A stretch of 64,000 nt of DNA from Escherichia coli (lineage in GTDB: Bacteria; Pseudomonadota; Gammaproteobacteria; Enterobacterales; Enterobacteriaceae): the NCBI RefSeq assembly GCF_016026235.1, contig NZ_CP065613.1; one strand, given 5' to 3'. Positions within the stretch are counted from its first letter, which is position 1, and each line of letters opens with the position of its first letter. Shown here one piece after another: positions 40,663 through 41,872 of this stretch. Both the position numbers and the translations under genes were made by a program. The notes beneath the pieces are model-generated. The model was not told the origin of the DNA, ran no database searches, and worked only from the letters and a program-made list of their open reading frames with translations.

Positions 40663-41068
40663 TTAAATTTTGTCACTAATATAGTTGCCGTGGTCATCGA
40701 TAATGGTCAGATACCAGTTATTTGCATTATTACTTTTGACATTAACACTCTGACTTTCTAAGGGGGCAATCATTATAGTTTCATAATTGACTTTGACATT
40801 ATTAGCTTTGACATCCGAAATCGTCACCCAATTAGCTGAGTCATTTTTTATCACCAATCCATTGCCACTGCGATTTACCAGTAACTTTTTAAAGGTCGCT
40901 TTATTTACCGGAGCAATACCCGCCGGCCGGTAAAACAATTTGATTCTGTTTTGCATCGCAAACTTCAGTGCATTCTTACCTTCTTGTTCTGGACTATTCG
41001 GTGGAATATCCAGAACATTAAGATAAAAAATACTTTCCTTATTACTGGGTAATTTATTAGGCATGATT
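40663..41068 (-). pseudogene. yehC: 3' fragment of periplasmic fimbrial chaperone yehC, truncated by IS1
   Basis: Only ~134 C-terminal codons of a PapD-like chaperone remain; reading frame runs into the IS1 end. Confidence 0.7.
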
Positions 41069-41123
41069 GGTAATGCTGCCAACTTACTGATTTAGTGTAT
41101 GATGGTGATTTTAAGGTGCTTGC

Positions 41124-41399
41124 GTGGCTTCCATTTCCATCAGATGTCCTTCCTGCTCCGCTACTGAAGGCGTGGTGCGTAACGGCAAAAGCACTGCCGG
41201 ACATCAGCGCTATCTCTGCTCTCATTGCCGTAAAACATGGCAACTACAGTTCACTTACACCGCCTCTCAGCCCGGTACGCACCAGAAAATCATTGATATG
41301 GCCATGAATGGCGTCGGATGTCGCGCCAGTGCACGCATTATGGGCGTTGGCCTCAACACGGTTTTACGTCACTTAAAAAACTCAGGCCGCAGTCGGTAA
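41124..41399 (+). CDS. insA: IS1 InsA (91 aa)
   Basis: ORF track; [43 protein letters not shown] recognised. Confidence 0.9.
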
Positions 41400-41821
41400 C
41401 CTCGCGCATACAACCGGGCAGTGATGTGATTGTCTGCGCTGAAATGGACGAACAGTGGGGCTACGTCGGTGCTAAATCACGTCAGCGCTGGCTGTTTTAC
41501 GCGTATGACAGGATACGGAGGACGGTTGTGGCGCACGTCTTCGGTGAACGCACTCTGGCCACACTGGAGCGTCTTCTGAGCCTGCTGTCGGCCTTTGAGG
41601 TCGTGGTATGGATGACGGATGGCTGGCCGCTGTATGAATCACGCCTGAAGGGAAAGCTGCACGTTATCAGCAAGCGTTACACTCAGCGCATTGAGCGACA
41701 TAATCTGAATCTGAGACAACATCTGGCAAGGCTGGGACGGAAGTCACTGTCGTTCTCAAAATCGGTGGAGCTGCATGACAAGGTCATCGGGCATTATCTG
41801 AACATAAAACACTATCAGTAA
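41318..41821 (+). CDS. insB: IS1 InsB reading frame (expressed as InsAB' via -1 frameshift)
   Basis: ORF track; A6C slippery motif TTAAAAAACTC at 41373-41383. Confidence 0.85.
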
Positions 41822-41836
41822 GTTGGAGTCATTACC

Positions 41837-41872
41837 GATAAGACAGCGACAGCAATAATTGAATGTTTCATG
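41837..41872 (-). pseudogene. yehD: Remnant 5' end (about 12 codons, MKHSIIAVAVLS) of a fimbrial subunit gene, probably yehD, abutting IS1
   Basis: Signal-peptide-like start codons immediately outside the IS1 right end; AT-rich promoter-like region 41873-42169 upstream. Confidence 0.45.

Follow-up and report, generated by a model that had tools for sequence, protein, structure and literature searches.

A single IS1 copy marks the loss of most of yehD and the 5' part of yehC in the Yeh fimbrial operon of an IS-rich Escherichia coli

The yehDCBA genes of Escherichia coli constitute a gamma4 chaperone-usher operon (PMC3032704). Yeh has been described as core-associated, in that the same locus, intact or disrupted, is found in almost all E. 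coli, with an intact operon in 92% of the strains surveyed and a disrupted or absent one in the others (Wurpel et al. 2013, PMC3559732). The operon is cryptic and silenced by H-NS in K-12 (PMC5797941), and the intact operon, when expressed, gives rise to thin flexible fimbriae, as seen by electron microscopy (PMC7098969). Fimbrial genes interrupted by insertion sequences (IS) are routinely tabulated, for example IS2::yqiG and IS5::yhcE of K-12 or IS3::fimG of strain Crooks (PMC3032704). Here we describe the yeh locus in a 64-kb stretch of E. coli DNA, hereafter designated the window, in which one IS1 element stands where most of yehD and the 5' part of yehC should be. Like the disrupted core-associated operons (PMC3559732, PMC3032704), it is an ancestral, usually cryptic gamma4 operon at its conserved place that has been inactivated by a mobile element; in contrast to them, the lesion lies in a minority yehD/yehE allele background. 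Unlike the tabulated IS-interrupted fimbrial genes (PMC3032704), which are simple interruptions, the window has lost the major subunit gene together with part of the chaperone gene. Gene loss driven by IS is known from Shigella and enteroinvasive E. coli (Hawkey et al. 2020, PMC7373316); the window is comparable in that it is very rich in IS and that a surface-structure operon is being lost via IS, whereas its source is labelled E. coli. A search of the literature returned no description of this particular yehD/IS1 lesion, only gene-list papers; the lesion itself is already public, being present in assemblies where it is annotated as a partial gene.

Classical studies of gal-region deletions and of intramolecular IS1 rearrangements have established that IS1 can delete the DNA that adjoins it by transposing within the same molecule. 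The window resembles the adjacent deletions of the gal region in having one intact IS1 at the join and one flank unchanged, and it shares with IS1 adjacent deletions a contiguous one-sided loss, the lack of a target duplication and a deletion that ends in AT-rich DNA. It differs from the classical cases in that the event is reconstructed from its end product in a natural isolate. The lack of a duplication around an IS is commonly explained either by adjacent deletion or by recombination between two IS copies (PMC11708052). In the E. coli long-term evolution lines, 14 of 14 IS-plus-deletion events proved to be multi-step adjacent deletions when earlier time points were inspected (PMC11708052). 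Recombination between direct IS repeats, seen in the same long-term evolution experiment, leaves the same end product, one IS between unrelated half-duplications (PMC11708052).

The yeh locus of the window occupies its conserved position between rcnB and yehE-mrp(apbC)-metG, as judged by synteny with K-12, PC6, MLI023K1 and FDAARGOS_943; its features are collected in Table 1. The yehDCBA set is incomplete: the usher gene and yehA are intact, but of the chaperone gene only the 134 C-terminal codons are left, and of the major subunit gene 35 nt. The locus is a remnant of a Yeh (gamma4) operon and no functional member of that class.

Table 1. Features of the yeh region and other IS copies of the 64-kb window.
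Feature	Position	Strand	Description
ISEc60 copy 1	494-1785		1292 bp; perfect 12-bp duplication
IS4-type copy 1	13282-14707		1426 bp; perfect 12-bp duplication
ISEc60 copy 2	21342-22633		1292 bp; perfect 12-bp duplication
yehA	37117..38151	-	fimbrial adhesin-like subunit, last operon gene; intact 344-aa ORF, gap-free and collinear with annotated PC6 yehA
yehB	38167..40647	-	outer-membrane usher; intact, 826 codons
yehC 3' remnant	40663..41068	-	periplasmic chaperone; from translation and alignment to PC6, FDAARGOS_943 and K-12 YehC
IS1	41069-41836	+	complete element, exactly 768 bp
IRL	41069-41091		GGTAATGCTGCCAACTTACTGAT; 20/23 positions match IRR
insA	41124-41399	+	open frame, ORF list
insB' frame	41318-41821	+	open frame, ORF list
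A6C frameshift motif	41375-41381	+	a -1 shift here gives a predicted InsAB' of 232 aa
IRR	41814-41836		GGTAATGACTCCAACTTACTGAT
yehD 5' remnant	41837..41871	-	major fimbrial subunit, minority allele; 35 nt, ATG at 41871
yehD upstream region (retained)	41872..42169	-	27.5% G+C, against 50.1% for the whole window
yehE (DUF2574)	42170..42451	-	intact, 93 codons, minority allele
IS4-type copy 2	48263-49688		1426 bp; perfect 12-bp duplication
ISEc60 copy 3	52954-54245		1292 bp; perfect 12-bp duplication

For yehB, the listed open reading frame (38167-40662) begins further upstream, at a TTG; the PGAP annotation of yehB in the yeh locus of E. coli PC6 (NZ_CP080253.1, designated L004, positions 2699-5179) agrees with a start at the ATG at 40647. 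PapC_N, Usher and PapC_C domains are called in the 826-aa product of an identical assembly (L010), and neither the ORF list nor the alignment to PC6 revealed another lesion in yehB or yehA. The yehC remnant (406 nt) comprises the last 134 codons and the stop, plus one extra base, and is missing the signal peptide and some 90-105 N-terminal codons. The sequence-only reading, a first reading of the window made from its letters, had already placed the truncation at the last ~134 codons, which both translation and alignment bear out. An internal ATG would give a 133-aa product that matches PapD_N/PapD_C and carries the NCBI name 'fimbria/pilus periplasmic chaperone, partial [Escherichia coli]'; an exact protein look-up found no record of the 139-aa form that starts at a TTG.

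On the other side of IS1, the yehD remnant consists of 11 codons plus 2 nt, with codon 12 restored by the first IS1 base that follows. It reads MKHSIIAVAVLS, then VMTPTY and a stop, an 18-codon ORF that terminates within IS1, and its 35 nt match exactly the beginning of the gene for the 'fimbrial protein' WP_000682830.1 in PC6 and MLI023K1. The earlier estimate that ~12 codons of a yehD-like gene are left was close, in that 35 nt of yehD do remain; the start codon had been put one base off, at 41872. The same reading had seen an AT-rich promoter region beside the remnant: the low G+C content stands, and the segment 41872-42169 is here a putative promoter region, so assigned from its position only. 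In a consensus scan of 40500-42300, promoter-like sites were no more numerous than in shuffled sequence, and therefore we make no claim of outward promoters derived from IS1 for yehB and yehA; the same scan gave no terminator-like sites. Just downstream of yehE lies an AT-rich 40-bp inverted repeat (42096-42135; aaaaagccaaaatcattc...gaatgattttggcttttt), seen as a self-inverse BLAST match. From its sequence, this hairpin looks like a bidirectional intrinsic terminator between yehE and the yehD promoter region, which the consensus scan missed because the stem has few G-C pairs.

The IS1 element is complete and is the only IS1 copy in the 64-kb window, beginning with GGTAATGCTGCC... at 41069 and ending with ...GGAGTCATTACC (also written ...AGTAAGTTGGAGTCATTACC) at 41836. 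A domain call matched its 167-aa product to DDE_Tnp_IS1 (PF03400), and by exact look-up both of its proteins are on record under the names IS1 InsA and InsB. Over the full 768 bp, the element is 100% identical to copies annotated 'IS1 family transposase' in many complete E. coli genomes, which excludes a chance match, and it is found at 99% identity or above in 3,926 records; its identity to IS1A is ~91%. Since it is 100% a widespread isoform, there is no sign that it is a hybrid between two isoforms. By its inverted repeats, its insA and insB' frames, the A6C motif and the predicted InsAB' product, this is an intact IS1.

The 9-mers that flank the element do not match, being GGCATGATT on the left (41060-41068) and GATAAGACA on the right (41837-41845); the target letters on the yehD side of the right junction are written (T)GTCTTATC / GATAAGAC(A). 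The best direct repeat within 15 bp on either side of the IS1 ends is 4 bp, and the 8-9 bp target duplication typical of a simple IS1 insertion is absent, so that the description of the element as exactly 768 bp between non-matching 9-mers proved accurate. Each of the five further IS copies in the window has a perfect duplication of 12 bp (5/5). A missing duplication is what is expected when a deletion came after the insertion, and it leaves the identification of IS1 unaffected.

Together, the six IS copies make up 11.7% of the window, an IS content much higher than is usual in E. coli. Relative to PC6, the gatC-gatD interval contains one ISEc60, and two adjacent DUF4132 genes downstream of metG are interrupted, one by an IS4-type copy and the other by an ISEc60; the window and FDAARGOS_943 have two ISEc60 insertion sites in common. 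A further 780 bp (15123-15902), absent from PC6, is a small strain-variable toxin-antitoxin insertion and no IS, its FDAARGOS_943 counterpart being a RelE/ParE toxin and a ParD antitoxin at yegQ (trhP)-yegP. At 9937-10167, the window has ~230 bp that are missing from the mdtD gene of FDAARGOS_943 (L014), where mdtD is annotated as frameshifted; the copy in the window appears to be the intact form.

Alignment with intact yeh loci, which had been proposed as the check on a deletion, defined its extent. Against PC6, the window aligns without gaps on both sides of IS1, 35469-41068 corresponding to L004 1-5600 at 98.5% identity and 41837-47436 to L004 6465-12064 at 99.9%. Both flank alignments end exactly at the ends of IS1, and the 864 bp between them (L004 5601-6464) are absent from the window. 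Lost with this interval are 508 bp of yehD (out of 543), the whole spacer of 87 bp and the beginning of yehC, the first 269 bp by the PGAP start or 314 bp by the K-12 start; the claim that most of yehD and the 5' part of yehC have been deleted is thereby confirmed. K-12 MG1655 has 856 bp between the two flanks; its identity to the window is 98.1% for the left flank, which ends at 41068, and 89.0% for the right flank, which begins at 41837. When the two flanks were searched joined, ~40 complete E. coli genomes were found in which both match at 99% or above and the interval is intact. In every reference examined the flanks are 856-864 bp apart, and at the sensitivity used no reference among 5,426 complete genomes has GGCATGATT directly adjoining GATAAGACA; intact references do not show flanks that are contiguous but for a simple insertion with a duplication. 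BLAST detected no copy of the 864-bp segment within the 64-kb window; a relocated copy, if there is one, would lie outside it. A metagenome scaffold (L011) with an apparently split yehC was rejected as a related case, the split being a run of Ns and no mutation.

The identities of the two flanks differ because yehD, yehE and the spacer between them fall into two allele classes, which accounts for the low identity of the right flank to K-12. The right flank of the window matches at 99% or above in 59 of the 5,426 genomes, at ~86% in most and at 94.8% in one O157:H7 genome. The yehD allele is the divergent one: 155 of 181 aligned positions (180 residues and the stop) match K-12 YehD. The right flank shows no difference from MLI023K1 across its initial 884 bp (41837-42720) and has 98.7% identity to that strain over 4.5 kb, but in yehCB the identity between MLI023K1 and the window is no more than 87%. 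Conversely, yehC, yehB and yehA (38174-41068) are K-12-like at 98%, against ~86-89% for the right flank, so that the breakpoint of this mosaic falls inside or beside the deleted interval. We considered whether IS1 sits at a recombination breakpoint and rejected the idea, as the same mosaic is intact in ~40 genomes; the mosaic is a natural one and owes nothing to IS1.

The lesion, or at least its left junction, is shared by other assemblies. An exact look-up of the 133-aa yehC product returned 24 contigs, of which one, the 412-kb contig UGFA01000005.1 of the NCTC-type assembly GCA_900449985.1, has the full structure: the 6,402 bp retrieved from it agree with the window base for base, and its gene order is likewise metG-apbC-yehE-IS1-yehC'-yehB-yehA. 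The others are mainly short-read contigs of 10-20 kb that carry yehA, yehB and the yehC remnant and end inside IS1; L012 stops 398 bp into the element (with 19 similar places) and L013 stops 75 bp in. The left junction is common to at least 20 short-read assemblies, including GCA_001907535.1 and GCA_902503985.1. It was found in none of the 5,426 complete RefSeq E. coli genomes, and at the right junction the complete E. coli genomes showed only independent IS1A events in unrelated allele backgrounds.

Intermediates were sought among relatives. A simple insertion of this IS1 isoform with a target duplication was found at neither junction in any genome, and the protein expected from a simple insertion on the yehC side had no record in an exact look-up. 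An internally started YehD of 165 aa is on record; we rejected these records as IS1 intermediates, since in the contigs behind them codon 4 of yehD has become a stop, the start codon is gone, or the contig ends uninformatively. In other public assemblies, this minority allele of yehD has been inactivated by codon 4 TCA>TGA (L016, L018) or by ATG>ATA (L017), so that the major subunit has also been lost independently by other means.

IS1 elements recur at this locus. Counting genomes and not independent events, IS1 is present in or beside the interval from the 3' end of yehB to yehE in 81 of 5,426 complete genomes, and an IS1 end lies near the 5' end of yehD in 70 of 5,426, at 6 or more different distances; this amounts to ~1.3-1.5% of the complete genomes, and one position has been hit at least twice at exactly the same base. 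Strain 14EC017 has an independent simple insertion of IS1A that coincides with the right junction of the window both to the base and in orientation, with an 8-bp duplication, GAAAAGAC. This base-exact coincidence makes the yehD-side position a preferred IS1 target, be it for a first insertion or as an end point. Strain 20A24 has an IS1A junction 3 bp from the right junction of the window, the other side of that IS1 now adjoining the corA region; the IS1A copies of these two strains lie at L006 2293-3060 and L007 2293-3060. FDAARGOS_943 retains intact yehD and yehC and has an IS1A with a 9-bp duplication in the yehD-yehE spacer, and Iso00270 carries two IS1A copies, in yehB and in yehC, in opposite orientation. 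From the three independent IS1 junctions that lie within 3 bp of one another in different strains, isoforms and yehD alleles, we tentatively raise the possibility, which we consider somewhat doubtful, that codons 9-12, at the 5' end of yehD, form a genuine hot spot of IS1 insertion and that Yeh might be lost convergently, by recurrent favour or at least by strong mutation bias, in IS-expanding E. coli lineages.

In our estimation, with a probability of about 0.5, the join was produced by an IS1 adjacent deletion. A functional IS1 would have inserted into the yehDCBA operon of an IS-rich E. coli, after which an IS1-dependent event would have removed the 864 bp from yehD codon 12 to about yehC codon 90 (codon 105 in K-12 numbering) and, with them, one copy of the original target duplication, leaving a single IS1 at the join. 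In such an intramolecular replicative transposition, the transposase would direct the ends of the resident element against a neighbouring site in the DNA molecule that carries it, and the intervening DNA would leave as a circle with a second IS1 copy and be lost, so that no duplication would surround the surviving copy. We infer this order of events and this enzymatic route from the final structure. We have a weak preference for the yehD end as the place of the first insertion, because another strain demonstrably has a simple IS1 insertion at exactly that position; a preferred target could equally represent the end point of the deletion.

Adjacent deletion and recombination between two IS1 copies, the two processes that the sequence-only reading had put forward, both match the end product, and because they give an identical sequence only intermediates in relatives could separate them. 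For the latter, two IS1 copies of the same isoform would have inserted independently in the same orientation, the one at GGCATGATT in yehC and the other at GATAAGAC(A) in yehD, with a separate duplication around each; RecA-dependent recombination would then have removed the 864 bp and one IS1, the survivor keeping the outer halves of the two duplications. This predicts the final structure exactly, and we regard it as a genuine possibility, although one at distinctly less than even odds. The yeh locus is a recurrent IS1 target by the counts given above, the source is IS-rich, and the two IS1A copies inside the operon of Iso00270 make such double hits realistic, although those copies are at other positions and in opposite orientation. 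Recombination between IS copies is, moreover, a frequent cause of missing duplications (PMC11708052). Weighing on the other side, two independent hits in the same orientation, 864 bp apart, and then a third event would be needed; neither insertion was found in relatives, and no complete E. coli genome was found with both copies at these sites.

A single event with no resident copy, in which an incoming IS1 joined its ends to two sites 864 bp apart or inserted during repair or rearrangement, strikes us as improbable; we know of no demonstration of such a route for IS1. The intermediate that was not found here would fit it, although a missing intermediate in sparse sampling is weak evidence. Movements of IS5 and IS481 with large rearrangements and no duplication have been argued to be neither recombination nor adjacent deletion, but the IS-plus-deletion events of the long-term lines were, without exception, multi-step adjacent deletions (PMC11708052). 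The import by recombination of a shorter yeh locus, followed by a simple IS1 insertion whose duplication was then eroded by mutation, can be regarded as essentially excluded. It would draw on the mosaic nature of the locus, K-12-like at 98% on the left and MLI023K1-like on the right, but that same mosaic occurs intact, with full-length yehC and yehD, in ~40 genomes, the remnants in the window are broken in mid-codon, the flanking 9-mers share at most 4 bp, and no reference examined departs from the spacing of 856-864 bp.

A chaperone-usher system requires a major subunit and an exported chaperone. The window has no major subunit, and its chaperone is without a signal peptide and the N-terminal part, which presumably, by homology to PapD, includes the conserved arginine that anchors the C-terminus of the subunit. 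On these grounds there is a strong inference that Yeh fimbriae are inactivated and cannot be assembled. The retained yehD promoter region would be expected to transcribe 35 nt and then IS1, antisense to insA. That yehB and yehA are still intact suggests that the event is recent.

The findings explain the absent yehD and the partial yehC of the source genome, and their value is mainly one of annotation. The two IS1 junctions provide a precise marker for a lineage that is represented in at least 20 public assemblies. Recurrent IS1 hits at yeh are mildly useful for studies of IS target choice and of fimbrial gene loss, and if the hot-spot reading is true, the deletion in the window would be one instance of a convergent pattern and no isolated accident. 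The lesion is an ordinary instance of known IS-driven gene decay, with nothing new in kind, and adds one more documented case of the decay of a cryptic chaperone-usher operon by IS in an IS-rich E. coli.
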